Of a DNA stretch of 64,000 nt, positions 13,468 to 36,657 are shown piece after piece. Under the pieces are notes generated by a model. The model had not been told where the DNA came from, made no database searches, and saw nothing but the letters and a program-made list of their open reading frames with translations. The number at the start of each line of letters is the position of its first letter. The stretch's first letter is position 1. Both the position numbers and the translations under genes were made by a program. Source of the stretch: Bryobacteraceae bacterium (GTDB taxonomy: Bacteria; Acidobacteriota; Terriglobia; Bryobacterales; Bryobacteraceae); contig JBBFLJ010000014.1 in assembly GCA_037481575.1 (NCBI GenBank), positions 24,134 to 88,133 on the forward strand, written 5' to 3'.

Positions 13468-15108
13468 CTAAGATTCGCGGCCCCTCGCCGCCCGCTCCGC
13501 CATCGCCGCCGCCATCCCTTCGGCCGTGTACGGGTTGGCCTCCGCGTCCACCTCCAGCCCCGCCTCGCGCACGGCAGCCGACGTCACCGGACCGATCGTG
13601 GCGATCCGCACCCCCGCGAGCAACTCCCGCGGCACCGCGCGCAGCAGGTGGCGCACCGTCGAGGCGCTCGTCAGCGTCACCCAGTGCGGCTTCGCCGCCG
13701 CAAACAATTCCCGCGCTTTCTGTTCCAGCCCCTCCGGCGCCACCGTCCGGTACACCGGCAGCACGTCCACCCGCGCGCCCAGCCGCTCCAGCTCTGATGG
13801 GATCACGTCCCGCGCCTCCTCCGCGCGCGCCAGCAGCACCCGCGCCCCTTCCACTCCCGCCCCGCGCAGCGCCTCCACGACGCCCTCCCCCATGTGTTCC
13901 TCTGGCACCAAGTCCGGCGCCAGCCCGCGCGCCCGCAACGCCGCCGCCGTCGCCGGCCCGATAGCGCAGATCCGCGGGCCGCGCCGCGGCTCGACCCGCG
14001 CAAAGAAAAACTCCACCCCGTTGGCCGACGTGAAAATCGCCCAATCGTAAGAATCCCAGTCTGGCGGATCGAACTCGAGCGCCCGGAACTCGAGCAGCGG
14101 CATCTCCACCACGTCCGCCCCCAGCGCCCGCAGCCGGGCGATCAGCTTTCCGGATTGCCCCCGCGGCCGCGTCACCACCACCACCTGCCCCAGCAACGGC
14201 AGCGCGTGCGGGTTCACCCGCGCCACCACGCCGCGCGCCCCCGCCGCCAGCAGCGCTTCCGCCGCGCGCCGCCCCAGCTCCACAGGCTGCCCGGCAGGGC
14301 CCGTCTCCACGCACTCGAACACGGCGCTGCCCTCCGGATCGGCCACCACCGCCCGCAGCCGCAGCTGCCCGCCCTCCAACTCCGCATAGGCGCCCAGCGG
14401 CACCTGACAGCCGCCCCCGAGCGACTCGAGCAGCGCGCGCTCGGCCTCCACCGCCGCCCGCACGGCAGGGTTGTCCAGCCGCGAGCAGATCTCGAACGCC
14501 GGATCCGGCGCCGCCCGCGTCTCGATCCCCAGCGCCCCCTGCCCCACCGCCGGACACATCCGCTCCGGCTCCAGCAGCTCGGCGATCCGCCCGCCCCAGC
14601 CCAGCCGCCTCAGCCCGGCGGAAGCCAGCACAATCGCGTCATACCGCCCTTCGTCGAGCTTCCGCAGACGCGTGTCGAGATTTCCCCGGATGTCCTCGAT
14701 CCGCACATCCGGCCGCAGCCGCCGCAGCTGCGCCGCCCGCCGCAGGCTCGACGTGCCCACGCGCGCCCCGCTCGGCAGCTCGTCCAGCCGCCGCCCCACC
14801 ATCGCGTCGAACGGCGACTCCCGCTCAGGCACAGCCGCCAGCACAAGCCCTGCCGGCAGCTCCGTCGGCAGGTCTTTCAGCGAATGCACCGCCAGATCGA
14901 TCCGCCCCTCAAGCAGCGCCTCCTCGATCTCTTTCGTGAACAGCCCCTTTGAACCTGCCCGCGCCAGCGGCACGTCCGTAATCCGGTCCCCCGTCGTGCG
15001 GATGATCTCGATCTCCGTCTCCACGCCCAGCCCGGCCAACAGCTCCGCCACCCGCCGCGCCTGCCACAGCGCCAGCTGCGAGCCGCGGCTCCCGATGCGC
15101 AGCTTCAT
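13468..15108 (-). CDS. hemC: Fused hydroxymethylbilane synthase / uroporphyrinogen-III synthase (HemC-HemD)
   Basis: ATG at 15108 (MKLRIGSRGSQLALWQA) overlaps the hemA stop as ATGA. The first ~300 aa are HemC-like (SLKDLPT, GGCQVPLGAYA). They continue without a stop into a ~245-aa HemD-like half (VVVTRPRGQ, AIFTSANGV, TIGPVTS). Confidence 0.85.
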   Translation of the reverse strand: MKLRIGSRGSQLALWQARRVAELLAGLGVETEIEIIRTTGDRITDVPLARAGSKGLFTKEIEEALLEGRIDLAVHSLKDLPTELPAGLVLAAVPERESPFDAMVGRRLDELPSGARVGTSSLRRAAQLRRLRPDVRIEDIRGNLDTRLRKLDEGRYDAIVLASAGLRRLGWGGRIAELLEPERMCPAVGQGALGIETRAAPDPAFEICSRLDNPAVRAAVEAERALLESLGGGCQVPLGAYAELEGGQLRLRAVVADPEGSAVFECVETGPAGQPVELGRRAAEALLAAGARGVVARVNPHALPLLGQVVVVTRPRGQSGKLIARLRALGADVVEMPLLEFRALEFDPPDWDSYDWAIFTSANGVEFFFARVEPRRGPRICAIGPATAAALRARGLAPDLVPEEHMGEGVVEALRGAGVEGARVLLARAEEARDVIPSELERLGARVDVLPVYRTVAPEGLEQKARELFAAAKPHWVTLTSASTVRHLLRAVPRELLAGVRIATIGPVTSAAVREAGLEVDAEANPYTAEGMAAAMAERAARGRES

Positions 15109-16376
15109 CGCTCCTCCAGCCGGAAGATCCTCCGGATCACGCCCAGAATCCGGTCGCCCTCCGGCCCCGCCGCCGCGCGCCGGATCTCCACCATCGCCCC
15201 GTGCGCCACCTTGTTCAGCAGCGAGCGCGTGTACGCCTCCAGCGCCTCCCCGCCGTTGCCCGCCGCGCCCAGCCGCCCCCGCCACCGCTCCAGCTCCTCG
15301 CGCCCCAGCTCCTCCAGCCGCTGCTGCAGGCTCACGATCACCGGCGCCACCTCGCGGGTGCGGAACCGCTCCAGCAGCCGCCGCACCTCTTCCTCGACGA
15401 TCTGCTCGGCCTCTTCCGCCTCCCGCTGCCGCGCCCTGCGGTTGGCCTCCACCTCGCGCCCCAGGTCGTCGATGTCGTACAGATAGGCGTTCTCCAGCTC
15501 GTCCACCGCCGGGTCGATGTTGCGCGGCACGGCGATGTCGATCAGAAACACCGGACGGTTCTGCCGGCGCCGCAGCACCGCCTTCATCTCGTCCTTCGTG
15601 ATCAGATACCCGGTGGCGCCCGAACTCGCCAGCACGATGTCCATCTCGTGCATCCGCTCGCGGAACCCGCCGTAGTCGATCACCTCGCCCTCCACGAGCG
15701 CCGCCATCTGTTCGGCGCGCGCCCGCGTCCGGTTGGTCACCGAGATCCGCCCGCAGCCGGCGCGCTTCAGATGCCGCGCCGCCAGCTCCGCCATCTTGCC
15801 CGCGCCGATGAGCAGCGCGTGCTTCGAGCGCAGGTCGCCGAAGATCTGCTTCGCCAGATCGATCGCCGCATAGCTGACGCTCACCGCGCTGCGGCCGATC
15901 GCCGTCTCGTTGCGCACCCGCTTGGCCACCGCAAACGCGCGCGCCAGCACCGCCTCCAGCCCCGCCTGCACGGCGCCCAGCTCGCGCGCCGCCGCATGCG
16001 CCTCCTTCAGCTGCCCCAGGATCTGCGGCTCGCCCAGCACCATCGAGTCCAGGCTCGACGCCACCCGGAACAGGTGCCGCACCGCCGCCTCGCCCGCGTG
16101 CGTGTAAAAGTGCGGCGCCACGGCAGCAGCCTCGATGCCGCGCAGCCGCGCCAGCGTTTCGATCAGCGGCTGCGCCTCGGGCGCGCCCGCCTCCCCGCCG
16201 TGCGCCAGCACCTCCACCCGGTTGCAGGTCGACAGCAGCATCACCTCCTCGACGCCCGGACACGCGCGCAGCGCGCCGAGCGCTTCCGGCAGCTCCGCCG
16301 CGGCAAAAGCCAGCCGTTCGCGCACCTCCACCGGCGCTGTCTTGTGGTTCAGTCCGGTGAGCAGGATCGGGATCAT
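15105..16376 (-). CDS. hemA: Glutamyl-tRNA reductase
   Basis: 423 aa. GLNHKTAPVEVRE, LSTCNRVE (catalytic Cys), and the NADPH site LLIGAGKMAEL. Confidence 0.93.
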   Translation of the reverse strand: MIPILLTGLNHKTAPVEVRERLAFAAAELPEALGALRACPGVEEVMLLSTCNRVEVLAHGGEAGAPEAQPLIETLARLRGIEAAAVAPHFYTHAGEAAVRHLFRVASSLDSMVLGEPQILGQLKEAHAAARELGAVQAGLEAVLARAFAVAKRVRNETAIGRSAVSVSYAAIDLAKQIFGDLRSKHALLIGAGKMAELAARHLKRAGCGRISVTNRTRARAEQMAALVEGEVIDYGGFRERMHEMDIVLASSGATGYLITKDEMKAVLRRRQNRPVFLIDIAVPRNIDPAVDELENAYLYDIDDLGREVEANRRARQREAEEAEQIVEEEVRRLLERFRTREVAPVIVSLQQRLEELGREELERWRGRLGAAGNGGEALEAYTRSLLNKVAHGAMVEIRRAAAGPEGDRILGVIRRIFRLEER

Positions 16377-16386
16377 CGCCTCGCCA

Positions 16387-17223
16387 TCAGTGCTCGAGCA
16401 GCGGGCGCAGTCCGATGTGGGCCGCCCACGTCAGCGCCGCAAACACCAGCACCGCCAGCGACAGCAGCGCCGCCCTCCGCCCGCGCCAGCCCGCCCACGT
16501 GCGCAGCACCACCATCAGCAGATAAAAGGTCCACGTGGCCAGCGAAATGAGAATCGCCGGCTTGCCGATCCAGCGCGCGCCGAACTCGGCCGACGCCCAC
16601 ACGCTCGCCACTCCCACAGCCAGCGTCAGCGCCACAAAGCCGATGTTCATCGCCGCCGTGATCAGCCCGTCCAGCGTCTCGAGCGGCGGCAGCCGCTCCG
16701 GCGTCAGGCGCGACAACCACCCCGCGTTCTCGTGCCGCCGCTTCAGCCGCCGCTCCTGCAGCAGATAGAAGATGGCGCCGGTGGCCGAGACCAGCAGCCC
16801 GCTGATGCCCGCCAGCACCAGGAAGATATGCGCCGCCAGCAGCGCGCCCCGCAGGTTCTGCTGCTCCCACGCCGGCGTCGAGGCGCCCGCAGCTGCGATC
16901 CACACCAGCACCGTCACCAGCGGAAAGAAGAACACGCACAAGCCGTCGAAGTGATACCGCCAGTCGATGAACAGATACGTGAGCGCCAGCAACAGCGCGC
17001 ACAGCGACGCGGTTTCGAAGAAGTTGTTCGCCGCCAGCTGCCCCAGCGCGATGCTGCGCTCGGCGATCGAGACGAAATGCAGCACCGCCGCTGTCTGGAA
17101 TGCTGCTGCGGAGACGCCCATCTCGCGCGGACGGCGGCGCACGAGCACCAGCACGGGATGAACGAAAGCCGCCGCATAGAGCAGTGCGGCGGCGCGCAGC
17201 CAGAGCAGGCTCAGATCGGGCAT
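16387..17223 (-). CDS. Cytochrome c assembly family protein (CcsA/HemX-like) upstream of hemA
   Basis: Polytopic membrane protein with a Trp-rich segment WASAEFGARWIGKP. It sits 10 nt upstream of hemA, as in hemAX-type operons. Start taken at the ATG at 17223 (MPDLSLLWL), because the longer ORF start at 17331 would overlap the divergent SDR gene. Confidence 0.65.
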   Translation of the reverse strand: MPDLSLLWLRAAALLYAAAFVHPVLVLVRRRPREMGVSAAAFQTAAVLHFVSIAERSIALGQLAANNFFETASLCALLLALTYLFIDWRYHFDGLCVFFFPLVTVLVWIAAAGASTPAWEQQNLRGALLAAHIFLVLAGISGLLVSATGAIFYLLQERRLKRRHENAGWLSRLTPERLPPLETLDGLITAAMNIGFVALTLAVGVASVWASAEFGARWIGKPAILISLATWTFYLLMVVLRTWAGWRGRRAALLSLAVLVFAALTWAAHIGLRPLLEH

Positions 17224-17325
17224 GGGCAGCGAGAACCAGGACAGGCCGCCACGAACGCGGCCTGCTTCGAGTATAGCGTCCGGCCGCCGGGCGCCGCCGC
17301 GCGCGGCCAGTGGCAAGATGTCACT

Positions 17326-18051
17326 ATGCAACCTGATCTCAGAGGAAAAACTGCGCTCGTGACCGGCGGCACGCGCGGCATCGGCCGCGCCATCGTTGAA
17401 ATGCTGCTCGAGGCCGGCGCCTCCACGGCCTTCTGCGCCCGCAGCCAGGCCGATGTCGAACAGGCCGAATTCCAGCTGCGCCAGCGATTCTCGTCACAAA
17501 CCCTAAAAATCCGCGGCCGCGCCGCCGATGTTCGGAGTGAGGAATCCGTTCGAGAGTTGTTCGAATGGATGGACCTCGAAATGGGAGGGCCGGACATCCT
17601 GGTGAACAACGCCGGCGTGGGCGTGTTCAAGGATGTGGCCGCGCTCGGTCCCGAGGAGTGGAACCTGGTGATCGAGACGAACCTGGGAGGCGTCTACCAC
17701 TGCTCGCACCACGCCATCCCGCGGATGCGGCAGCGCGGCGGAGGCTGGATCGTCAACATCGGCAGCCTGGCCGGCCGCAACGCCTTTGCGGGCGGGGCAG
17801 CCTACAACGCCTCCAAGTTCGGACTCGTCGGCATGAGCGAAGCCATGATGCTGGACCACCGCCACGAAGGCATCCGCGTCGCCTGCATCCTGCCCGGCAG
17901 CGTCAACACGAGCTTCGGGCACAGCGGCGCCGCGGACTGGAAAATGGCCCCGGAAGACGTGGCCCAGGCCGTGGCGGCCGTGCTCGCCATGCCGGATCGA
18001 ACTTTAGTGAGCCTGGTGGAAATGCGCCCGTCGCGGCCCCCGAAAAAGTAG
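17326..18051 (+). CDS. SDR-family oxidoreductase
   Basis: In-frame ATG at 17326 (MQPDLRGKTALVTGGTRGIGRAI). Motifs TGxxxGIG, NNAG and YNASK. The upstream 397 codons of ORF 16135..18051 are Arg/Pro-rich shadow sequence. Confidence 0.85.
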   Translation: MQPDLRGKTALVTGGTRGIGRAIVEMLLEAGASTAFCARSQADVEQAEFQLRQRFSSQTLKIRGRAADVRSEESVRELFEWMDLEMGGPDILVNNAGVGVFKDVAALGPEEWNLVIETNLGGVYHCSHHAIPRMRQRGGGWIVNIGSLAGRNAFAGGAAYNASKFGLVGMSEAMMLDHRHEGIRVACILPGSVNTSFGHSGAADWKMAPEDVAQAVAAVLAMPDRTLVSLVEMRPSRPPKK

Positions 18052-23506: not shown

Positions 23507-24670
23507 CTACTTCCTCGGCGGCACGGTCACGAATTTCCACACGGTCGTCGAACGGTACTCCTGCCCCGGTTCCAGCACCGTCGACGGAAACTCCGGCTTG
23601 TTTGGCGAATCCGGAAAATGCTGCGTCTCCAGGCAGAATCCCGAGCGCCGCGGATACACCTTCCCGCCCTTGCCCGTGATCGTGCCATCCAGGAAATTCC
23701 CGGTGTAAAACTGCATCCCAGGCTCCGTCGTCCACACCTCCAGCCCGCGCCCGGTGGCCGGCTCCACCACTCGCGCCGCCAGCGACAGCCCCTCACCCTC
23801 GCGGTCCAGCACGAAATTGTGGTCATAACCTCCGCCAAGACGGATCTGCTCGTCGTCGGCGTCGATTCGCTCTCCGATCCGCCGCGGCTTGCGGAAATCG
23901 AACGGCGTGCCCTCCACGCTGCGCAGCTCGCCCGTCGGAATCAGCCCCGCATCCACCGGCGTAAACCGGCTCGCACGGATTTCAATCTCGTGATTCAGAA
24001 TGTCCCCCTGTCCTTGCCCTGCCAGGTTGAAATAGGTGTGGTTGGTCAGATTCACCACCGTCTTTTTGTCCGTGGCCGCCCGGTAATCAATCCGCAGCGA
24101 ATCGTCGTCGGAGAGCGTATAGCGCACCTCCGTCCGCAGCGTTCCCGGATAGCCCTCCTCTCCATCCGGGCTCGTGTATTCGAGGATCAGCGTCTGCCCC
24201 TGCTCGCCGGACTCCGTGCGCGCCTTCCACAGCTTCTTGTCGAACCCCTCGTTGCCTCCGTGCAGCGAGTTCTCTCCATTGTTCTTCGCCAGCGTGTAGG
24301 TCACCCCGTCCAGCGTGAAGCGCGCCTTCCCGATCCGGTTCCCGTAACGCCCGATGATCGCCCCGAAATACGGATGCGGCTGCAGATACCGCTCCAGCGT
24401 GTCAAAGCCCAGCGCCACGTCCGCGAGCAGCCCTTTGCCGTCGAACGTCTTCAGCGTCACAATAATGCCGCCGTAATTCGTGATCGACGTCTCGATCCCG
24501 TTCTTGTTCTTCAGCGTGAACAGCTGCACGGTTTCTCCGTTCGGCATTTTCCCGAATTCCTGTACAGTCACGGTTCCTTTTGCTCCTCTCTCTGCGGTCT
24601 TGCATGCCGCAAACAGCGCTGCCGCCGGCACAGCCGTGCGCATCGCCTCGCGGCGGGAAATTCGTCTCAT
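23507..24670 (-). CDS. galM: Aldose 1-epimerase (galactose mutarotase), secreted
   Basis: 387 aa. N-terminal signal or lipoprotein-like leader (AALFAACKT). Motifs GNRIGKARF, SLHGGNEGFDKKLW, NHTYFNL and FCLETQHFPDSPN. Confidence 0.88.
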   Translation of the reverse strand: MRRISRREAMRTAVPAAALFAACKTAERGAKGTVTVQEFGKMPNGETVQLFTLKNKNGIETSITNYGGIIVTLKTFDGKGLLADVALGFDTLERYLQPHPYFGAIIGRYGNRIGKARFTLDGVTYTLAKNNGENSLHGGNEGFDKKLWKARTESGEQGQTLILEYTSPDGEEGYPGTLRTEVRYTLSDDDSLRIDYRAATDKKTVVNLTNHTYFNLAGQGQGDILNHEIEIRASRFTPVDAGLIPTGELRSVEGTPFDFRKPRRIGERIDADDEQIRLGGGYDHNFVLDREGEGLSLAARVVEPATGRGLEVWTTEPGMQFYTGNFLDGTITGKGGKVYPRRSGFCLETQHFPDSPNKPEFPSTVLEPGQEYRSTTVWKFVTVPPRK

Positions 24671-24673
24671 GGA

Positions 24674-27973
<3,300 letters not shown>

Positions 27974-27975
27974 TC

Positions 27976-28281
27976 ATGCTGATCGTTCATGTCCACGTCT
28001 CCGTGAAGCCCGAATCCGTGGAAGCCTTCCGCCAGGCGACTATCGAAAACGCCTCCGCCAGCCTGAACGAGCCCGGCGTCGCCCGCTTCGACGTCATTCA
28101 GCAGACCGACGATCCCACGAAGTTCATCCTCGTCGAGGTCTACCGCTCGCCGGAAGCCGCCGCCGCCCACAAGGAGACCGCCCACTACGCCAGGTGGCGC
28201 GACACCGTCGCCCCGATGATGGCGCAGCCGCGCTCCAGCGTGAAGTACTCCAACGTCTTCCCTCCCGACGAGGGCTGGTGA
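27976..28281 (+). CDS. ABM-domain (antibiotic biosynthesis monooxygenase-like / quinol monooxygenase-like) protein
   Basis: 101 aa with a ferredoxin-like fold pattern: [11 protein letters not shown]...F...E.GV.RFDV.Q...DP..F.LVEVY....A...H..T.HY. AAGGAG lies 6 nt before the ATG. Confidence 0.7.
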
Positions 28282-28285
28282 GCGC

Positions 28286-29449
28286 ATGATGTGGGAATTC
28301 GCCACCGCGGCGCGCATCGTCTTCGGCGCCGGCGCCGCCAGCCAGATCGCCCCCGCCGCCCGCGCCTTCGGCTCGCGCGCCCTGCTCGTCACCGGGCGCA
28401 AGCCCCGCCACGCCGCCCGCCTCGTCGCCGACCTGCACAACCTCGGCGTCGGATGCACGCCCTTCCCCGCCTCCGGCGAACCCACGCTCGACACCGTGCG
28501 TGCGGGCGTCGAAACCGCGCGCCGCGAGGGCTGTGATCTCGTCATCGCCTGCGGCGGCGGCAGCGCCATCGACGCCGGCAAAGCCATCGCCGCCATGCTC
28601 GCCAACCCCGGCGATGTTCTCGACTACCTCGAGGTCATCGGAAACGCGCAGCCGCTCCGCGCCGCCCCCGTGCCTTTCATCGCCGTCCCCACCACTGCTG
28701 GCGCCGGCAGCGAGGTCACGCGCAACGCCGTTCTTCAGTCTCCGGAACACGGCGTGAAAGCCAGCCTCCGCAGCCCGCTGATGCTCCCCCGCCTCGCCGT
28801 CGTCGATCCCGAACTCACGCTCTCTGCGCCGCCTGACGTCACTGCCGCCACAGGGCTCGACGCGCTCTCCCAGCTGCTCGAACCCTTCGTCAGCCTGCGC
28901 GCCAATCCCTTCACCGACATGCTCTGCCGCGAGGGGCTGCGCCTCGCCGCCCGCTCGCTCCGGCGCGCCTTCGAGGACGGAAACGACCTGGAAGCCCGCA
29001 CCGGCATGTCGCTTGCCAGCCTCCTCGGCGGCATGGCTCTCGCCAACGCCGGGCTCGGCGCCGTCCACGGCTTCGCCGCGCCTATCGGCGGCGCCTTCCC
29101 CGCTCCCCACGGCGCCGTCTGCGCGGCTCTGCTCGCGCCCGTCACCCGCGCCAACCTCCGCGCCCTCCAGTCGCGCGAGCCGAACAACCCCGCACTCGCG
29201 CGTTACGAAGAAGCCGCGCGCATCCTCGATCCCGGCGGCGCCGGCGCCGCCTCCCTCCCCGATTGGCTCGATCAACTCCGCGCCGCGCTCGGCATCCCTC
29301 CGCTGTCTGCTTACGGGATCCGCGAATCCGACATCCCCGGGCTGTGCGAAAAAGCCGCCCGCGCCAGCAGCATGAAGGGCAATCCGGTGCAGCTCACCCC
29401 GGAGGAGCTTCACGCCGTGCTCGCCGAAGCGCTCGGCGCGCCGCGTTGA
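28286..29449 (+). CDS. Iron-containing (group III) alcohol dehydrogenase
   Basis: 387 aa. Motifs GGGSAIDAGKA, VPTTAGAGSEVT, and His-rich metal-site motifs (GAVHGFAAPIGG, PHGAVCA). Confidence 0.85.
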   Translation: MMWEFATAARIVFGAGAASQIAPAARAFGSRALLVTGRKPRHAARLVADLHNLGVGCTPFPASGEPTLDTVRAGVETARREGCDLVIACGGGSAIDAGKAIAAMLANPGDVLDYLEVIGNAQPLRAAPVPFIAVPTTAGAGSEVTRNAVLQSPEHGVKASLRSPLMLPRLAVVDPELTLSAPPDVTAATGLDALSQLLEPFVSLRANPFTDMLCREGLRLAARSLRRAFEDGNDLEARTGMSLASLLGGMALANAGLGAVHGFAAPIGGAFPAPHGAVCAALLAPVTRANLRALQSREPNNPALARYEEAARILDPGGAGAASLPDWLDQLRAALGIPPLSAYGIRESDIPGLCEKAARASSMKGNPVQLTPEELHAVLAEALGAPR

Positions 29450-29533: not shown

Positions 29534-30172
29534 ATGGCAGACCTTCAAAAACTCTACGACGCGGTGCTCAACGGCGATCAGAAAACCGCCGTGGCTGTCA
29601 CGCAGGAAGCCCTCGCCGAAGGCTGCGACCCCATGGAGCTCATCACGAAGCACATGGTGCCCGCCATGGACGAGGTGGGCAGGCGTTTCGAGTGCGAAGA
29701 GTACTTCGTGCCGGAGCTGCTGCTTTCGGCGCGCGCCATGAAGGGCGCGCTCGAACTGTTGCGCCCGTTGCTCGCCGCCAGCGGCGCCGAACCCGCAGGC
29801 CGCGTCGTCATCGGCACCGTCAAGGGCGACCTGCACGACATCGGCAAGAACCTCGTCGCCTCCATGCTCGAGGGCGGCGGCTTTGAAGTGATCGATCTCG
29901 GCGCCGACGTGCCCCCGGAGAGATTCATCGAAGCCGTACGCGAAAACAATGCCCGCATCGTCGCCCTCTCGGCGCTGCTCACCGTCACCATGCCTTCCAT
30001 GCGCAAGACCATCGAGGCGCTCGAGAAGGCGGGCATGCGCCAGCAGGTAAAGGTCATGGTGGGAGGCGCGCCGGTGACGGCGCAGTTCGCCGCCGAGATC
30101 GGCGCCGACGGTTACGGGGAGAACGCCACCGCCGCCGTCGCGCTCGCCCGCAGGTTCGCGCAGGCAGGCTGA
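29534..30172 (+). CDS. Corrinoid (cobalamin-binding) protein of the MtaC/MtbC/MetH-B12 type
   Basis: ATG at 29534 preceded by GAAGGAG. N-terminal helical cap domain, then DxHxxG (GDLHDIGKN), SxL (SALLT) and GG (MVGGAP) motifs. Confidence 0.9.
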   Translation: MADLQKLYDAVLNGDQKTAVAVTQEALAEGCDPMELITKHMVPAMDEVGRRFECEEYFVPELLLSARAMKGALELLRPLLAASGAEPAGRVVIGTVKGDLHDIGKNLVASMLEGGGFEVIDLGADVPPERFIEAVRENNARIVALSALLTVTMPSMRKTIEALEKAGMRQQVKVMVGGAPVTAQFAAEIGADGYGENATAAVALARRFAQAG

Positions 30173-30177
30173 CGCGT

Positions 30178-31050
30178 ATGTCCCGGCTCGCGGAATGGAT
30201 CCACGGCGGCATCGTCATCACCGACGGAGCGTGGGGCACGCGCCTGCAGGAGCTTGGCCTCGAACCGGGCGCACTGCCCGATGCATGGAACCTCGCGAGC
30301 CCGGACCGCGTGGAACAGGTGGCGCGCGAGTACGTGGAAGCGGGCAGCGAGGTGATCCTCACGAATACCTTTCGCTCCAACCGCATCGCGCTAGCCGCCG
30401 CAGGAATGCAAGACCGCGTCGCGGAAATCAACGCCGCGGGCGTGGCGATCAGCCGCCGCGCCGCCGCGGGGCGCGCGCGCGTCGCCGCCTCCATCGGGCC
30501 GACGGGAAAAATGCTGACGGCGGAGGAGGTCGCACCACCCGAGCTGCGCGCCGCGTTCCTCGAACAAGCGCAGGCGCTCGCCGCCGCGGGCGCGGACGCG
30601 ATTCTGATCGAGACGATGAGCGATCTCGAAGAAGCGCGCATCGCCCTGCGCGCGGCTCTTTCCACCGGCCTCCCCGTGATCGTCTCCTTCGCCTTCGACA
30701 CCGGCCGCAACCGCGACCGCACGATGACAGGCGTGACGCCCGAGCAGGCCGCCGCGGAGATGGCAGCCGAGGGAGCCGACGCCGTGGGCGCCAACTGCGG
30801 CGCGGGCATCGAACGCTTCGTCCCCATCTGCGCCCGGATGCGCGCCGCCTGCTCCTTGCCGCTGTGGATCAAGGCCAACGCGGGAATGCCCGAGTGGCGC
30901 GAGGGGCGCGCCGTCTACTCGACGCCGCCCGCAGACTTCGCCGCCTTTCTGGCGCCGTTGCGGGAAGCCGGCGCCGCCTTCGTCGGCGGCTGCTGCGGAA
31001 CCACGCCCGATTTCATCCGCGCCCTCGCCGCCGAAAAGGAAAGGCTATGA
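30178..31050 (+). CDS. Free-standing homocysteine S-methyltransferase domain protein (MetH N-terminal module / BHMT family)
   Basis: 290 aa. Motifs TDGAWGT, LTNTF, and the Zn-binding cysteines in GANCGAG and GGCCGTTP. Lies 5 nt after the corrinoid protein gene. Confidence 0.85.
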   Translation: MSRLAEWIHGGIVITDGAWGTRLQELGLEPGALPDAWNLASPDRVEQVAREYVEAGSEVILTNTFRSNRIALAAAGMQDRVAEINAAGVAISRRAAAGRARVAASIGPTGKMLTAEEVAPPELRAAFLEQAQALAAAGADAILIETMSDLEEARIALRAALSTGLPVIVSFAFDTGRNRDRTMTGVTPEQAAAEMAAEGADAVGANCGAGIERFVPICARMRAACSLPLWIKANAGMPEWREGRAVYSTPPADFAAFLAPLREAGAAFVGGCCGTTPDFIRALAAEKERL

Positions 31051-31793
31051 AGCTCCGGCTCATCAGTTGCGAGGTCCTCTTCCGCGAAATGTGCGACGCC
31101 GTGGCGCGCTCGCCGCATCAGGTGGACGCGGAGTTCCTGCCCAAGGGCTGGCACGACCTCGGCGGCAAGCGCATGGCGGAGCTGATCCAGGAGCGCATCG
31201 ACGCCGTGCCCGCCGGCGCATACGACGCCATTTTGCTGGGCTACGGGCTGTGCGGCAACGGGCTGGATGGCATCCGGGCGCGGCACACCTTGCTCGTCCT
31301 GCCCCGCGCCCACGACTGCATCGCCCTGCTCATGGGCGGCCGCGCCCGCTACCAGGAATTCTTCGAGGAATTCCCCGGCACTTTTTACCGCTCCACGGGC
31401 TGGCTGGAGCGTGGCAAAGGCCTGAAACAGCTTACCCACGGCACCACCGGCATGGACGTTTCGCTCGAGAAATTGATCGAAAAATACGGCGAGGAAAACG
31501 GCCGGTATTTGTACGCGGAACTCACCCGCTACCGCTCCGCCTATCAGCGGCTCGTCTACATCGAGACCGGACTCGAGCCCGACGGCCGCTTCGAGGAGGA
31601 GGCGCGTTGGGAAGCCGCCGAACACGGCTGGGAATTCCGCAAGATCCGCGGCAGCCTCGAGCTGTTCCGCAGGCTCGTCAACGGCGCGTGGGGCGGCGAG
31701 GACTTCCTGCTCGTGCAGCCCGGCGAGCGGGTTCGCGCCACCTACGACGACGCGGTGGTGCGGATCGAGCCGGCGCCGGAGGCGGCGCGATGA
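31047..31793 (+). CDS. DUF1638-family protein
   Basis: The ATG overlaps the upstream stop (ATGA). MKLRLISCEVLFRE...LLGYGLCGNG...PRAHDCIALLMG matches my memory of DUF1638, a family commonly found beside corrinoid proteins. Confidence 0.7.
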   Translation: MKLRLISCEVLFREMCDAVARSPHQVDAEFLPKGWHDLGGKRMAELIQERIDAVPAGAYDAILLGYGLCGNGLDGIRARHTLLVLPRAHDCIALLMGGRARYQEFFEEFPGTFYRSTGWLERGKGLKQLTHGTTGMDVSLEKLIEKYGEENGRYLYAELTRYRSAYQRLVYIETGLEPDGRFEEEARWEAAEHGWEFRKIRGSLELFRRLVNGAWGGEDFLLVQPGERVRATYDDAVVRIEPAPEAAR

Positions 31794-31818
31794 CCGGGGG
31801 GCGGAAGGAGGCTGCGCG

Positions 31819-32832
31819 GTGACAGGCAAGGAACGCATCCTGGCGCGCATCCGGCATGAGCAGCCGGACTGCCTGCCGCTGATGCCCATCACGATGATGT
31901 TCGCCGCCGACGTGGCGGGAGTCCGCTATGGCGATTACGCCCGCGACCACCGCGTGCTGGCGCGGGCGCAGCTCGCCGTGGCGCGCCGCTTCGGCTTCGA
32001 TTACGTCAGCGTCATCTCCGACCCGGCGCGGGAGACGGCGGACTTGGGCGGCGCGATCGAGTGGTTCGAGGATCAGCCGCCGGCGGTGATCGAGAGCCGC
32101 GCCGTCTTGCACGAGAAGAGCGTGCTGGACCGTCTGCCGCTGCCCGATCCGCTGGCGCCGGGCAGCCGCATGAGGGACCGCGTCGACGGCGTGGCGCTGC
32201 TGAAGCACGAGGCGGGGGAGGAGCTGATCGTGGAGGGCTGGGTGGAGGGTCCGTGCGCCCTCGGCGCGGATCTGCGCGGCGTGAACACGCTGATGCTCGA
32301 TTTCATCGACGACCCTCCCTTCGTCGAGGCGCTGTTCGATTACTGCGTGCGGCTCGAGATCGAATTCGCACGCGCGCAGGTGGAGGCGGGCGCCACGCTG
32401 ATCGGCATCGGAGACGCTGCGGCGTCCCTGGTCGGCCCCCGCCTTTATCATCAATATGTGCTCCCATTCGAGAAAAAACTCGTGGCCGCCATCCGGGCGA
32501 TGGGGGTTCCCGTGCGGCTGCATATTTGCGGCAACACGCGGAAAATTGCAAAGGGAATGGGGGAAACGGGGGCTGATATTGTGGACCTGGATTTCCTGAC
32601 GCCGATGGCCGAGGCCCGCGCGGCGATGCCGGAGCCGCAGGTGCTGCTCGGCAACATCGACCCTGTCCGCGTGCTCCGCGACGGGACCCCGGAGCAGGTG
32701 GAAGCCGCTCTGGAGGAGTGCTGGCGCGCCGCAGGCCCCTCCTACATCGTGGGTCCGGGCTGCGAAACCCCCCGCGGCACGCCGGCGCAGAATATGGAAG
32801 CGATGGCGCGCTTCGCGCGCTCCCGGCAGTGA
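31819..32832 (+). CDS. URO-D-fold methyltransferase of the MtaA/MtbA/CmuA type (Zn-dependent methylcobamide:thiol-type enzyme)
   Basis: GTG start after GGAAGGAGG. 337 aa with a URO-D-like N-terminus (ERILARIRHEQPDCLP). H-x-C Zn motif RLHICGN plus the downstream Cys in GPGCETP. Confidence 0.8.
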   Translation: MTGKERILARIRHEQPDCLPLMPITMMFAADVAGVRYGDYARDHRVLARAQLAVARRFGFDYVSVISDPARETADLGGAIEWFEDQPPAVIESRAVLHEKSVLDRLPLPDPLAPGSRMRDRVDGVALLKHEAGEELIVEGWVEGPCALGADLRGVNTLMLDFIDDPPFVEALFDYCVRLEIEFARAQVEAGATLIGIGDAAASLVGPRLYHQYVLPFEKKLVAAIRAMGVPVRLHICGNTRKIAKGMGETGADIVDLDFLTPMAEARAAMPEPQVLLGNIDPVRVLRDGTPEQVEAALEECWRAAGPSYIVGPGCETPRGTPAQNMEAMARFARSRQ

Positions 32833-34259
32833 AACTCACCCTCCGCCCGGCGCCGGGCATGCGCCTGTCTGACCAGCTCCAGCAGGCGGGAGTCGAATTC
32901 CCGTGCGGGGGTCAGGGCATCTGCGGCGGCTGCCGCGTCCGCGTGATCGAGGGCGACATTCCGGTCACGGACGCGATGCGGCAGCAGCTGGGCGAACGCG
33001 AGCTGCGGGAGGGCTGGCGGCTCGCCTGCTGCGCAAACGCTTCGGCGCCCGTCACCGTCGAGGTGGAGCAGTGGTCGGCGCGCGTGCTCTCCGACGAGGA
33101 GGAGGTGCCGGTGGAACCGCGCCCCGGTTGGGGCGCAGCCGTGGACCTCGGCACCACGACCGTCGCTGCGCAGCTCGTCCATCTCGAAACCGGCGAGGTG
33201 GAAGCGGTGGAAACGGCGCTGAACGCGCAGGCGCGCTTCGGCGCCGACGTCATGAGCCGCATTCAGCACGAGTTGAAACACCCCGGGGAGCTCGGACGCG
33301 TGATCCGTGCGCAGCTGGAGGCGATGCTCGGCAGGCTGGCGGGAGGGCGCAAGCTCACGGAGGTGCTGCTGGCAGGAAACACGGCGATGCACCATCTGTT
33401 CAGCGGTCTGGACGTAGCCCCGCTGGCGGCGGCGCCGTTCCTTTCGCCGGCCACAGGCGCGCAGAGGTGGAAAGCGGCGGAGGTTCCGTGGGGCGCGGAC
33501 ACGGTGTTCCTCCCTTGTTTGGGCGGTTTCGTGGGCAGCGACCTGCTGGCCGGGCTCGCCGCCACGCGGCTCGACAAAAAACGGAATTGCCATGTTCTGT
33601 TTGATATCGGAACCAACGGCGAGATCGTGGCGGCGCAGCGCGCGCGCGTCCGCTGCGCCTCCACCGCCGCCGGGCCCGCGTTCGAGGGCGGCAGGATCCG
33701 CTGCGGCATGCGCGCCTGCGAAGGGGCCATCGACTCGGTGCGGATCGAACACGGGCGCCTCGTGCCGCATGTGATCGGCGGCGGCGCGCCGCGCGGCATC
33801 TGCGGAAGCGGACTGGTGGACGCGGTGGCGAAGGCGCTGGATCTCGGGCTGGTGCAGCGCAACGGCAGGCTGGCGCGCGGCGACATCGCCCTGGCGGAGG
33901 AAGTCGTGATCACGCAATCCGACGTCCGCCAGCTGCAACTCGCAAAAGGTGCGATGGCCGCGGGGCTCAAGCTGATGGCGCGCGGCGCGCGGCAGCTCTT
34001 TCTGGCTGGGGCGTTCGGCAACTACCTGCACGCCGACAGCGCGCGGCGCATCGGGCTGCTGCCGGAAGACGCGGAGGTTCAGCCTGTGGGCAACGCGAGC
34101 CTGCGCGGCACCCGGATGCTGCTGTTGTCGCCCTCCACGAGGGAGGAGCGGGTGGCACGGATTCTGGCGGCAGCGGAGCACGTAGAGCTCGCCGGGATAG
34201 CCGGATTCGAGGACGTGTTCGCCGAGAGCATGGCGCTCGAGCCTTTCCGGCTCCGGTGA
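32829..34259 (+). CDS. RACo-type reductive activator of corrinoid enzymes ([2Fe-2S] ferredoxin domain plus ASKHA ATPase domain)
   Basis: The GTG overlaps the upstream stop (GTGA). Plant-type ferredoxin motif CGGQGICGGCRV...LAC, then ASKHA motifs AVDLGTTTVAAQL, DIGTNGEIV and TAAGPAFEG. Confidence 0.85.
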   Translation: MKLTLRPAPGMRLSDQLQQAGVEFPCGGQGICGGCRVRVIEGDIPVTDAMRQQLGERELREGWRLACCANASAPVTVEVEQWSARVLSDEEEVPVEPRPGWGAAVDLGTTTVAAQLVHLETGEVEAVETALNAQARFGADVMSRIQHELKHPGELGRVIRAQLEAMLGRLAGGRKLTEVLLAGNTAMHHLFSGLDVAPLAAAPFLSPATGAQRWKAAEVPWGADTVFLPCLGGFVGSDLLAGLAATRLDKKRNCHVLFDIGTNGEIVAAQRARVRCASTAAGPAFEGGRIRCGMRACEGAIDSVRIEHGRLVPHVIGGGAPRGICGSGLVDAVAKALDLGLVQRNGRLARGDIALAEEVVITQSDVRQLQLAKGAMAAGLKLMARGARQLFLAGAFGNYLHADSARRIGLLPEDAEVQPVGNASLRGTRMLLLSPSTREERVARILAAAEHVELAGIAGFEDVFAESMALEPFRLR

Positions 34260-34304: not shown

Positions 34305-34877
34305 ATGATTCCCGCAGATCAGTTGTTCGGCGCGGCAGCGGCGCCTTCCCCGGAGAACGTGGAGGAGTTCCTGATGGCGTGCCACCGGCGGATCGAACAG
34401 CGGCTTGCGGCAATGGAGCGCGCCGCCGCGGCGCTGGATTCGAGCCGCCAGGAGGCACTGGCGGCGCTGGAAGCAGCGCTCGAGTTCCTCGATACGAGCG
34501 GCGCCCTGCACACGGAAGACGAGGAAGAGAGCGTGTTCCCGCGCCTGCGGGCGCGGATGGAAGCCGGAGAGCGGACGTTTCTCGCAGGGCTGGAGCACGA
34601 TCATGCTGAGGCGGGAATGATCCACCGGCGCCTGCGAAAGCTGGTTTCGAAGGCGAAAGACGGGCAGGAGAACGGCGGCGCGGTGCGCGGCGCGGTGGAG
34701 GAGCTGGCGGCTCTCTACCGGCGCCACATTGCGAGCGAGGACTCGGCTCTGACGGCTTACGCGCGTGCGCTGCTCACGCCGGAGGAGCGCTCCGCGATTG
34801 CATCGGAGATGCGGGCTCGGCGAAAGCTGGCGGCAGGTACGAGCACCGCGGATCGGCAGCCAGAAAGTCTCCCGTAA
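34305..34877 (+). CDS. Hemerythrin-like cation-binding domain protein
   Basis: 190 aa. Repeated H/E ligand pattern (CHRRIE, HTEDEEESVFP, LEHDHAEA, HIASED). Confidence 0.7.
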   Translation: MIPADQLFGAAAAPSPENVEEFLMACHRRIEQRLAAMERAAAALDSSRQEALAALEAALEFLDTSGALHTEDEEESVFPRLRARMEAGERTFLAGLEHDHAEAGMIHRRLRKLVSKAKDGQENGGAVRGAVEELAALYRRHIASEDSALTAYARALLTPEERSAIASEMRARRKLAAGTSTADRQPESLP

Positions 34878-35871
34878 GCGCCCACGCGCGGGCCCGGGAG
34901 CCGCCGCAAAGGTTGCGGTACTCGCAGACGCCGCACTTTCCGCCCAGAGCGTCGGCGTTGCGGAGGACGCGGAACAGCCGCGAGTTGCGATAGGCGTCCG
35001 CCAGGCGGACATTTCTCACGTTTCCCGCGGAAATTTCCAGAAACCCCGAGGGATAAATCTCGCCAGTGTGGGAGATAAAGAGCAGCCCCTTTCCATCATT
35101 GATGCCCGCCTGGCGGGCGATGGCGCCGGCGGAGGCGCGGGCGGGGGCGGCGCCGGAGGCCTTCCGCTGCCGGGCGGCGAAGCGGCGGTAATGCTGCGCT
35201 TCCGTCGTCTTGACGTCGAATGGCGCGGTCAGCGAGATCCGGTAAAGGAACTCGAAAACCTGCTCGTATTCTTCCGCCGTCAGGTCGTCTTCCAGCTGCG
35301 CCCGTCCGGTGACGACTAGAAAAAAGACGCTCCACAGCCGGGCGCCGCTGTCCTCGACGAGTGCGGCGATACGATCCAGGGAACGGAAATTGCGGCGCGT
35401 CACCGTGGTGTTGATCTGAGTTTCGAGCCCTGCTTCGCGTGCCGCGCGCAGGGCTTCGAGCGTGATGCGGAAGCTGCCCTCGACGCCGCGGAAGCCGTCG
35501 TGCTGCGGGGCATCGGCGCCGTCCAGGCTCACCGCCATGCGCGCGACGCCGGCGTCGCGGAAGCGCCGAACCGCCTCCCCGGTGAGCAGCGGCGTGGCGC
35601 TCGGCGTGATCGTGGTGCGCAGCCCCGCTGCAACGCTCATCCGCAGCAGGTCGAACAGATCCTCCCGCTTCAGGGGATCGCCCCCCGTGAAGACCAGAAG
35701 AGGATCGCCAAATTCCCGGATCTGCCGGATCAACTCCTCCGCCTCGGCGCGCGTGAGCTCCGCCGGATGGCGCTCCGGCTGCGCGGAGGCGCGGCAGTGG
35801 CGGCAGGCGAGGTCGCACGCCTGGGTGACCTCCCAGATGACGAGGAACGGGGCTTCGGAGAAGTCTCGCAT
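34774..35871 (-). CDS. Radical SAM / SPASM-domain enzyme (AhbD/NirJ-related; resembles the uncharacterised BA_1875-type family)
   Basis: 365 aa. CxxxCxxC in WEVTQACDLACRHCRA, GG motif FTGGDPL, FFLVVTGRA, and C-terminal auxiliary-cluster cysteines GKCGVCEYRNLCGG...DPRCSY. Confidence 0.8.
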   Translation of the reverse strand: MRDFSEAPFLVIWEVTQACDLACRHCRASAQPERHPAELTRAEAEELIRQIREFGDPLLVFTGGDPLKREDLFDLLRMSVAAGLRTTITPSATPLLTGEAVRRFRDAGVARMAVSLDGADAPQHDGFRGVEGSFRITLEALRAAREAGLETQINTTVTRRNFRSLDRIAALVEDSGARLWSVFFLVVTGRAQLEDDLTAEEYEQVFEFLYRISLTAPFDVKTTEAQHYRRFAARQRKASGAAPARASAGAIARQAGINDGKGLLFISHTGEIYPSGFLEISAGNVRNVRLADAYRNSRLFRVLRNADALGGKCGVCEYRNLCGGSRARAWALTGDFLAADPRCSYLPPAFAEPASPMQSRSAPPA

Positions 35872-35982: not shown

Positions 35983-36657
35983 TCAGAACTCGGTTTCGGC
36001 CTCGGCGCGCAAGGCTTCCGGATCGGCGATCACGATCTGGCGGCGCTCGATGCGGACCATGCCTTCCGCCTGGAAGCGCGAGAGGTTGCGGCTGACCACT
36101 TCGCGGACCGTGCCCAGCCGCATGGCAAGCTCCTCGTGTGTCAGCGGAGCCGTTTCCATCTCGCCGCGCTCCCAGGCATCCAGCAGCAGGCGCGCCAGCC
36201 GCTGTCGCACACTGCCGAAGGTGATCGCCTCGATCAAGCCGACCAGCTGCCGCAGCCGCCGCCCGAGAATGGCGAATACCCGCAGCGGCACTTCAGGGTG
36301 CTGCAGGCAGAAGCGCCGGAAATCTTCTTTGCGGATCAGATAAGCGGTCACGGGCGTGATCGCTCTTACGGTGGCCGGGTAGTCGCCTTCGTCAAACAGC
36401 GGCACTTCCGCCACCGAAGACGGCGCGGTCTCCATCGCCAGCATGATTTCCCGCCCCGTCTGGCTGGTCTTGCAGATCTTCACCGTGCCCTCGCCCAGCA
36501 CGTACAGCCCCTCGCAGGTGTCTCCTTCGTAGAAGAGCGTCTCGCCGGCATCGAATCTTTTCTCGACGGCGAGCGCAGCCAGCTGAAGGCATACGTCCTG
36601 CGGAAGCGTGCGGAACAGCGGCGTGCTGCGGAAGGCTTCGTGCTTGCGCTCGCCCAT
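35983..36657 (-). CDS. Crp/Fnr-family transcriptional regulator
   Basis: 224 aa. cNMP-binding-like beta-roll (FYEGDTCEGLYVLGEGTVKI) and a C-terminal HTH (THEELAMRLGTVREVVSRNLSRF). No N-terminal FNR-type Cys cluster is seen. Confidence 0.88.
   Translation of the reverse strand: MGERKHEAFRSTPLFRTLPQDVCLQLAALAVEKRFDAGETLFYEGDTCEGLYVLGEGTVKICKTSQTGREIMLAMETAPSSVAEVPLFDEGDYPATVRAITPVTAYLIRKEDFRRFCLQHPEVPLRVFAILGRRLRQLVGLIEAITFGSVRQRLARLLLDAWERGEMETAPLTHEELAMRLGTVREVVSRNLSRFQAEGMVRIERRQIVIADPEALRAEAETEF

Follow-up and report, generated by a model that had tools for sequence, protein, structure and literature searches.

Where does a corrinoid methyl-transfer operon obtain its methyl groups when no gene for a pterin-binding enzyme stands near it? 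The question is raised by five closely packed plus-strand genes at positions 29534 to 34259 of a 64,000-nucleotide stretch (the window; ~68% G+C) of contig JBBFLJ010000014.1 from a Bryobacteraceae bacterium (GenBank assembly GCA_037481575.1). In order, these genes encode a corrinoid protein (CoP), a homocysteine S-methyltransferase (HcyMT), a DUF1638 protein, a short MtaA-like URO-D protein (UroD_S), and a reductive activase (RACo); a longer URO-D protein met in related loci is called UroD_L. The core of the operon appears to be a split MetH, probably served by a pterin enzyme, to which the URO-D genes have been added. For the operon as a whole our answer is tentative: it may be a corrinoid hub, in which a split methionine synthase has gained a non-folate methyl port, a reading that we consider quite possible though just short of probable.

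Gene content and layout of the operon

Pfam searches were run on ~55 coding-like open reading frames (ORFs) spanning the full 64 kb, and confirmed families scored well over the gathering score. All five family assignments proposed in a first-pass annotation of this DNA held in these searches, and the gene calls, spacings, and motifs that it quoted were all present. CoP (29534 to 30172), an MtgC/MtbC-like corrinoid (B12) carrier, matched B12-binding_2 (PF02607; 89 bits) and B12-binding (PF02310; 116 bits). It has the DxHxxG motif as D-L-H101-D-I-G, SALLT at 146, and MVGGAP at 175, and scored 212 bits against NCBIfam TIGR02370 (cut-off, 215). An AAGGAG ribosome-binding site lies 7 nucleotides (nt) ahead of its start, and a gap of 5 nt separates it from HcyMT (30178 to 31050), a standalone, MtgE-like counterpart of the homocysteine module of a split MetH (PF02574, S-methyl_trans; 231 bits) with DGAWGT at 16 and TNTF at 62. 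Residues C207, C272, and C273 of HcyMT correspond, residue for residue, to the zinc ligands C207, C272, and C273 of Thermotoga maritima MetH (1Q7M; alignment E value, 1e-43), which puts the zinc cysteines of the homocysteine module at the catalytic positions, as the first-pass annotation had assumed.

HcyMT overlaps the DUF1638 gene (31047 to 31793; PF07796, 121 bits) by an ATGA. The AlphaFold2 (AF2) model of the DUF1638 protein has a predicted local distance difference test (pLDDT) score of 82; a Foldseek search of this model against the PDB gave no fold match (best template modeling [TM] score, 0.29), and the protein has no sequence relative in the PDB. A 25-nt gap containing GGAAGGAGG leads to UroD_S (31819 to 32832), which starts with GTG and encodes an MtaA-like, predicted zinc methyltransferase of the URO-D fold (PF01208; 207 bits). 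A GTGA overlap joins it to RACo (32829 to 34259), a RACo/RamA-type ATP-dependent reductive activase (Fer2, 38 bits; Raco_middle, 122 bits; RACo_C_ter, 197 bits) whose N-terminal [2Fe-2S] ferredoxin domain shows the plant-type cysteine pattern (C26, C32, C35, and C67). In a scan of 27.7 to 35.1 kb, no promoter-like sites were found and terminator-like sites were not commoner than in shuffled sequences; the operon limits are therefore drawn from gene spacing. Rfam searches found no B12, S-adenosylmethionine, or other riboswitch in the window, and none upstream of the operon even to an E value of 1.

A published split methionine synthase core

Four of the five genes correspond to a system already described. 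Transposon fitness data from Phaeobacter inhibens show a methionine synthase split into a PF02574 protein, a corrinoid protein, and a pterin-binding subunit whose gene lies elsewhere (Price et al. 2018, PMC5764234). The same bacterium also needs a ferredoxin-plus-DUF4445 RamA-like protein and a DUF1638 protein, which ties DUF1638 genetically to B12-dependent methionine synthesis and reactivation (PMC5764234). The two systems share a standalone HcyMT with the zinc cysteine triad, a standalone CoP with DxHxxG, DUF1638, and an activase with Fer2 and RACo domains. In P. inhibens the pterin subunit is unlinked. The two systems differ in that none is encoded in our window; in that an MtaA-like URO-D gene stands between DUF1638 and RACo here, with all five genes in one operon; and in phylum (Acidobacteriota and Planctomycetota here versus Alphaproteobacteria). 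The first-pass description of a split, methionine-synthase-like pathway therefore stands, with four of its genes already in print (PMC5764234), and only the URO-D gene is extra.

Related loci vary around the core

A genome scan with an alignment of eight UroD_S sequences, run on a collection holding one genome per species, found at least 592 genome stretches that encode a UroD_S relative. Locus counts given here refer to the best 80 of these at least 592 matching stretches (61 to 95% identity; numbered with an L prefix), with genes counted within 10 kb of UroD_S; the 80 loci were searched in six frames with the window proteins and with proteins met along the way. Most belong to Bryobacterales, and some to Isosphaeraceae and other Planctomycetota, including the cultured Aquisphaera insulae JC669.

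DUF1638 was present in 71 of the 80 loci, directly upstream of UroD_S in nearly all, followed by RACo (67 loci), CoP (61), HcyMT (57), and UroD_L (49; ~440 amino acids [aa]). A third URO-D type was found in 6 loci, MtaB in 4, and a pterin methyltransferase in 1. The commonest order was UroD_L-CoP-HcyMT-DUF1638-UroD_S-RACo, and all six families occurred together in ~40 loci. The five-gene form of the window, which lacks UroD_L, recurred in 10 of the 80 loci from two phyla (L006 to L009, L025, L026, L029, L037, L059, and L062, the last being A. insulae), so that the survey proposed in the first-pass annotation did find its gene order again. Because the same order is kept in these 10 loci and the core in most others, the arrangement is not a chance one. 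At the other extreme, UroD_S stood alone in 7 loci, and 4 had only the DUF1638-UroD_S pair. These four pairs (L067, L075, L077, and L081) have neither CoP nor RACo genes within 10 kb, which hints that DUF1638 may have as close a connection with the URO-D enzyme as with the activase. Locus L015 is the sole related locus with a canonical full-length MetH in view (L015:19986-21002; N-terminal part, 417 bits to TIGR02082), and the standalone HcyMT is missing there.

The additional enzymes are of several kinds. UroD_L is distantly URO-D-like (51 bits) and has invariant H330, C332, and H417, that is, an HxC...H site and not HxC...C. The third URO-D is an ORF of ~354 aa between CoP and HcyMT (L039, L044, L058, L060, L071, and L080, some of them Planctomycetota metagenome-assembled genomes [MAGs]); in L044, the one sequence inspected, it carries a zinc-type HNC...EC(D) motif. 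MtaB, the bacterial methanol:corrinoid methyltransferase (PF12176, 528 bits; NCBIfam, 427 bits against a cut-off of 720), is the immediate neighbor of the cluster in four Bryobacterales or Terriglobia loci, on the minus strand in each—L014:4969-6369, L022:716-2116, L065:14577-15983, and L019:5018-6677. In L019 (5018-9288), UroD_L, MtaB, and HcyMT are each split into two or three ORF fragments, reflecting either frameshift errors in the assembly or a decaying cluster. The first-pass remark that two thiol-type enzymes form an unusual combination is weakened by this variety: the commonest form has a further UroD_L with its HxC...H site and sometimes a third URO-D as well.

Two MAGs with related loci (L007 and L008; 94% and 87% identical to the high-GC, Bryobacteraceae-type operon of the window) are titled "uncultured Arcobacter sp." or "Arcobacter sp.," which looks like mislabeled taxonomy.

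The folate module

Pfam searches of the ~55 ORFs found no pterin-binding (PF00809), MtaB, or MttB-type gene in the 64 kb, with no match to PF06253 (MttB family, MtgB) in any scanned window ORF, and six-frame phmmer probes of the window with a Bryobacterales pterin methyltransferase and MtaB gave no match either. The first-pass annotation was correct in reporting these genes as missing from the window. Relatives give a different view of what may follow from it. In L047, a pterin methyltransferase lies ~1 kb from the cluster (L047:1795-2613) and scores 321 bits against PRK07535 (methyltetrahydrofolate:corrinoid methyltransferase; cut-off, 259). The pterin domain of Escherichia coli MetH was an insensitive probe (61 bits on one true match), and the L047 protein was used instead; it returned the same single pterin match among the 80 loci. 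As a query against a protein database, it had 1,045 matches at an E value of ≤1e-20, and the best 120 of these 1,045 were standalone proteins of ~267 aa with 63 to 96% identity, the named ones coming from Bryobacteraceae, Terriglobia, or Acidobacteria.

A physical link between core and folate genes was found in loci outside the 80. In L092 and L094/L095, CoP-HcyMT-DUF1638-RACo without a URO-D gene is divergent to GntR-FTHFS-cNMP-MTHFR-Pterin_bind, and in L093 a CoP gene stands ahead of FTHFS-cNMP-Pterin_bind. With the core proteins of the window, those of L092 and L094 share 57 to 74% identity, a range into which the URO-D-containing locus L031 also falls; for this reason, we regard the L092 and L094 cores as orthologous to the window core. 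The divergent operon itself, in which the MTHFR gene is accompanied by DUF5981, spans L092:5555-10804 and L094:5563-10810, with a related one at L093:6429-10813. A 150-aa cyclic-nucleotide-binding protein (cNMP) is encoded inside this folate one-carbon operon.

Since the core is paired with a pterin module in relatives and pterin enzymes are common in the lineage, "folate-independent," as the first-pass annotation had it, is not the likeliest description. That annotation had treated a pterin, MtaB, or MttB-type partner conserved beside the cluster in related genomes as the finding that would speak against it. Such partners do exist in a minority of relatives (one pterin and four MtaB loci among the 80, with L092 and L094/L095 in addition), but not as a conserved neighbor.

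UroD_S and its wider homologs

UroD_S scored below all curated cut-offs for its closest described relatives (score/cut-off: TIGR01463, 162/235; MtbA, 147/600; MtaA, 111/400) and is 22 to 24% identical to MtaA. In alignment, residues H235, C237, and C315 nevertheless fall on LHICGN and PGC of MtaA from Methanosarcina mazei (4AY7), and MtaA is also the best PDB match of the AF2 model (pLDDT, 93; TM score, 0.90; root mean square deviation, 2.3 Å; 22% identity). UroD_S thus shares fold and zinc motifs with MtaA and differs from it in low identity and sub-cut-off scores; as for membership in the MtaA/CmuA family, the zinc triad is present on a URO-D TIM barrel, while the score stays under the TIGR01463 cut-off. 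Coenzyme M is not expected in these bacteria. The His-Cys-Cys site does not by itself fix the direction in which UroD_S transfers methyl groups: MtsA is reported to work either way, and CmuA, which has an MtaA-like domain, acts on the donor side.

When 1.84 billion representative proteins were searched exhaustively, 326 clusters of UroD_S homologs were found at an E value of ≤1e-30. Among 40 aligned homologs, down to 32% identity, the full HxC...GCE pattern was kept in 38 and the His-Cys-Cys triad in 39. Homologs with 35 to 54% identity occur in Planctomycetota, Chloroflexi (Flexilinea and Anaerolineaceae), Treponema, Moorella, and Eubacteriales, and the neighborhoods of several hold sugar-related genes with no corrinoid genes within 10 kb. 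The Moorella sulfitireducens homolog is accompanied by a ROK regulator, a sugar ABC transporter, a second URO-D, and PIG-L, PfkB, and NagB-like genes; the Planctomycetota homolog by GFO/IDH/MocA oxidoreductases and a xylose-isomerase-like barrel; the Flexilinea homolog by GH3 and an ABC transporter with an SBP_bac_5 binding protein; and the lone Bryobacterales copies by an aldo-keto reductase, a galactonate-dehydratase-like enolase, GH5, and a beta-helix protein. Two further homologs (P0123 and P0136, the latter from Treponema) have neither a sugar nor a corrinoid context that is evident.

A Eubacteriales homolog with 35% identity adjoins CoP, another URO-D, CobW, and RACo genes, with GH2 and NagB-like genes at the flanks. 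Its locus (L098/L099:1441-9017, from a MAG) encodes CoP, a 451-aa URO-D with a Cys-rich C-terminal extension, CobW, DUF2284, and a RACo without a ferredoxin domain; a PocR/AraC regulator and the UroD_S-like gene come next, and the flanking genes include a mannosidase-like GH2, the NagB-like gene, and GFO/IDH/MocA. We considered a conserved pair of long and short URO-D genes across phyla and rejected it, as the 451-aa URO-D of L098 is unrelated to the Bryobacterales UroD_L.

Comparison with other corrinoid systems

A precedent for a shared carrier is Ruegeria pomeroyi, where MtgC is a hub common to MtgB (glycine betaine), the bidirectional pterin enzyme MtgD, and the homocysteine enzyme MtgE (Mausz et al. 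2025, PMC12478193). There, mtgD adjoins the metF paralog metF2, and RamA and DUF1638 are co-induced (PMC12478193). Both systems have one corrinoid protein, and the Bryobacterales pterin gene likewise stands beside MTHFR. In contrast, the candidate donor enzymes here are of the URO-D fold (with MtaB in four loci) and not MttB-family MtgB, and the donor is not glycine betaine.

In type 1 mlp clusters of strict anaerobes, a corrinoid protein and an activase are encoded together with several MtaA-like proteins of the His-Cys-Cys kind, and a folate enzyme is missing; one Mlp-type protein showed weak methylation of selenide and sulfide, and the MtaA-like proteins were proposed to demethylate methyl-sulfur or methyl-selenium compounds onto the corrinoid, with the methyl group recycled into methionine (Kountz and Balskus 2023 preprint, PMC10418091). 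Compared by description, the window shares with these clusters an MtaA-like His-Cys-Cys protein, a corrinoid protein with a RACE/RACo activase, and the lack of a folate methyltransferase. The mlp clusters differ in that they need at least Mlp2 plus Mlp3, whereas the window has one MtaA-like gene and so falls outside the type 1 definition; they also have no HcyMT or DUF1638 and are restricted to strict anaerobes, mostly Firmicutes. By joining an MtaA-like gene and HcyMT in one operon, the window provides a link that is absent from the Kountz-Balskus model.

The O-demethylases (MtvABC, OdmABCD, and MtoABCD) also pair a methyltransferase I (MT I) of the URO-D fold with a corrinoid protein and a RACo-type activase. 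However, their clusters also encode a methyltransferase II (MT II), of pterin or MtrH type, and their MT I has no full Cys pair, whereas the window URO-D has the full His-Cys-Cys triad and no MT II gene accompanies it. UroD_L of the related loci may play the part of an O-demethylase MT I. What is new here is that, in abundant bacteria of soil and peat, a split MetH core is joined to between one and three putative methyltransferases of the URO-D fold, often with genes for sugar uptake and glycosidases in between.

Possible roles of UroD_S

If the operon is a corrinoid hub, RACo together with DUF1638 would keep the cobalt as, or return it to, Co(I), using ATP and a low-potential electron, and HcyMT would unload methyl-Co(III)-CoP onto zinc-activated homocysteine to give methionine. 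The usual methyl source would be methyl-tetrahydrofolate, most likely delivered by a standalone pterin methyltransferase encoded in the source genome outside the window. UroD_S would then be a second, non-folate port to the same CoP, probably on the donor side and analogous to MtgB of Ruegeria. Its substrate could be a thioether or methylthiol, or an O-methyl compound freed by polysaccharide breakdown, and the methyl group stripped from it would go on to homocysteine, or to folate by way of the pterin enzyme. In relatives, UroD_L, the third URO-D, and MtaB would act as additional enzymes on the donor side.

The hub is supported by the way in which UroD_S and the candidate donor enzymes (UroD_L in 49, the third URO-D in 6, and MtaB in 4 of the 80 loci) vary around a constant core, and by the occurrence of UroD_S-type genes in sugar-catabolic neighborhoods across several phyla. 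The domain and motif results, the genetics of Phaeobacter and Ruegeria, the pterin genes near the cores of L047, L092, and L094/L095, the sugar genes inserted in the operon, and the Kountz-Balskus proposal speak for it as well. Other results weigh against it. The pterin gene that it calls for is missing from the 64-kb window and lies within 10 kb in only 1 of the 80 UroD_S loci, and the closest characterized relatives of UroD_S, MtaA and MtbA, are acceptor-side enzymes. In 11 of the 80 loci, UroD_L, CoP, DUF1638, UroD_S, and RACo occur and HcyMT is missing, a composition that would also fit UroD_S as the acceptor partner of UroD_L. Functions throughout the UroD_S clade are, moreover, predicted ones.

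The strongest competitor takes up these last points and makes UroD_S an acceptor-side methyltransferase (MT2) like MtaA, which would move the methyl group from CoP to a thiol—for example, from CoP to sulfide, giving methanethiol, or to a low-molecular-weight thiol—with HcyMT as a parallel outlet and the methyl group supplied by UroD_L, MtaB, or methyl-tetrahydrofolate. We judge it to be doubtful, although it explains several observations well. MtaA and MtbA are the closest relatives among solved and curated proteins, the His-Cys-Cys site is typical of sulfur and selenium methyltransferases, and the HxC...H site of UroD_L differs from that type; the 11 loci without HcyMT would then hold a complete set of donor-side methyltransferase (MT1), CoP, and MT2. 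There is also a precedent within the phylum, as the acidobacterium Holophaga foetida methylates sulfide from methoxy groups (Bak et al. 1992, listed among the references of PMC6486533). On the other hand, an acceptor-side UroD_S would leave the window with no donor enzyme save a pterin enzyme acting in trans, and no acceptor thiol is known in these taxa. Lone UroD_S-type genes that stand in sugar-catabolic loci and have no further corrinoid gene within 10 kb would likewise be odd for a generic acceptor enzyme, an objection qualified by the UroD_L-family paralogs that lie near the lone copies in L020 and L021.

The first-pass annotation had instead proposed a self-contained, folate-independent methionine synthase, with UroD_S loading CoP from a thioether or methoxy donor and HcyMT unloading it to homocysteine without any pterin enzyme. 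An MT1, a carrier, an MT2, and an activase do make a formally complete set, the five-gene form occurs with no other methyltransferase in its 10 loci from two phyla (A. insulae among them), and the lack of pterin, MtaB, and MttB genes in the 64 kb is as this proposal would have it; it also agrees with the idea of corrinoid methionine salvage (PMC10418091). We nevertheless consider it unlikely. In Phaeobacter, this core functions although its pterin subunit is unlinked (PMC5764234), it is physically paired with Pterin_bind, MTHFR, and FTHFS in Bryobacterales, and pterin methyltransferases are widespread in the lineage; a housekeeping supply of methionine that depended on an environmental methyl donor would, in addition, be fragile. 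That UroD_S is not a corrinoid methyltransferase but a sugar- or sugar-acid-modifying enzyme of the URO-D fold, inserted by chance into a split MetH operon, is very improbable, for although its 35 to 54% identical homologs stand in sugar operons or alone with no corrinoid or RACo genes within 10 kb, UroD_S retains the whole zinc triad of MtaA, is flanked by DUF1638 and RACo, with translational coupling through a GTGA overlap, in 67 of the 80 loci, and has a 35% identical Eubacteriales homolog that is again found beside CoP and RACo.

Should the corrinoid hub prove true, a B12-dependent split enzyme makes methionine in these bacteria while its carrier also takes up methyl groups from, or gives them to, a non-folate pool. 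Bryobacterales and Isosphaeraceae, to which most of these loci belong, are reported to be common in peat and soil as degraders of polymers, and a hub of this kind would bear on the B12 demand of soils, on the fate of plant-derived methyl groups, and possibly on the formation of methanethiol and dimethyl sulfide in peat. The isolate names of the MAGs behind several loci (bog_375, fen_178, and bog_159) suggest a peatland source. Acidobacteriota of Stordalen Mire express mtaB and methoxy-demethylation genes (Ellenbogen et al., PMC10805028). The hub would also offer a tractable setting for the functions of DUF1638 and of a large MtaA-like clade, with two cultured carriers, Paludibaculum fermentans and A. 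insulae.

Sugar-gene context

In ~10 Bryobacterales and Planctomycetota loci, same-strand genes are inserted between CoP (or UroD_L) and HcyMT, in several independent arrangements. The inserts encode sugar porters of the major facilitator superfamily (L040, L051, L052, L055, L058, and L083) and glycoside hydrolases (GH) of families GH2 (L051 and L055, for which the best NCBIfam matches are beta-glucuronidase models at sub-cut-off scores) and GH36 (L064), as well as GH94-like proteins (L042 and L047). GH2 genes also flank or interrupt the cluster in several relatives, and in the window itself divergent sugar genes on the minus strand (23507 to 27943) encode, by Pfam, a LacZ-type GH2 beta-galactosidase (NCBIfam Bga2A, 1,031 bits; cut-off, 999) and an aldose 1-epimerase. 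The link to sugar catabolism is thus recurrent, and it is circumstantial.

A speculative possibility is that UroD_S, UroD_L, and the third URO-D are corrinoid-dependent demethylases of methylated carbohydrates or methylthio-sugars released by the breakdown of plant polymers, with the methyl group passed directly to homocysteine, or to folate. We think this improbable as it stands; literature searches for corrinoid-dependent demethylation of methylated sugars found nothing. If true, however, it would be the first corrinoid-dependent sugar demethylase, and it would place sugar demethylation in Acidobacteria and Planctomycetes of soil and peat that are aerobic or facultative, and not in strict anaerobes.

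Flanking genes

Directly upstream of the operon, on the same strand, are genes for an ABM-fold protein (27976 to 28281; Pfam ABM) and an Fe-dependent alcohol dehydrogenase (28286 to 29449; Pfam Fe-ADH and ADH_Fe_C). Among the related loci, only those of the three nearest relatives (L006, L007, and L009) have this pair ahead of the cluster, and it is therefore specific to the sublineage; it fills the slot in which UroD_L stands in ~40 other loci.

Downstream, 45 nt past RACo, a plus-strand gene encodes a hemerythrin-domain protein (34305 to 34877; PF01814, 61 bits). It is kept in this position in 11 of the 80 loci and is possibly the last gene of the operon or an oxygen or iron sensor. Two minus-strand genes follow: a convergent one for a radical SAM/SPASM protein (34774 to 35871; NCBIfam TIGR04053, 464 bits; cut-off, 395) and one for a Crp/Fnr regulator (35983 to 36657; Pfam cNMP_binding and HTH_Crp_2), both kept in 8 to 9 of the 80 loci. 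The conservation of the hemerythrin, radical SAM, and Crp/Fnr genes may reflect oxygen-responsive control. The hemerythrin and radical SAM genes overlap by 104 nt, 3' end to 3' end. Farther away, ~13 kb upstream of the operon, the minus strand carries genes of the tetrapyrrole pathway, glutamyl-tRNA reductase (hemA) and a cytochrome c assembly-like gene (15105 to 17493).

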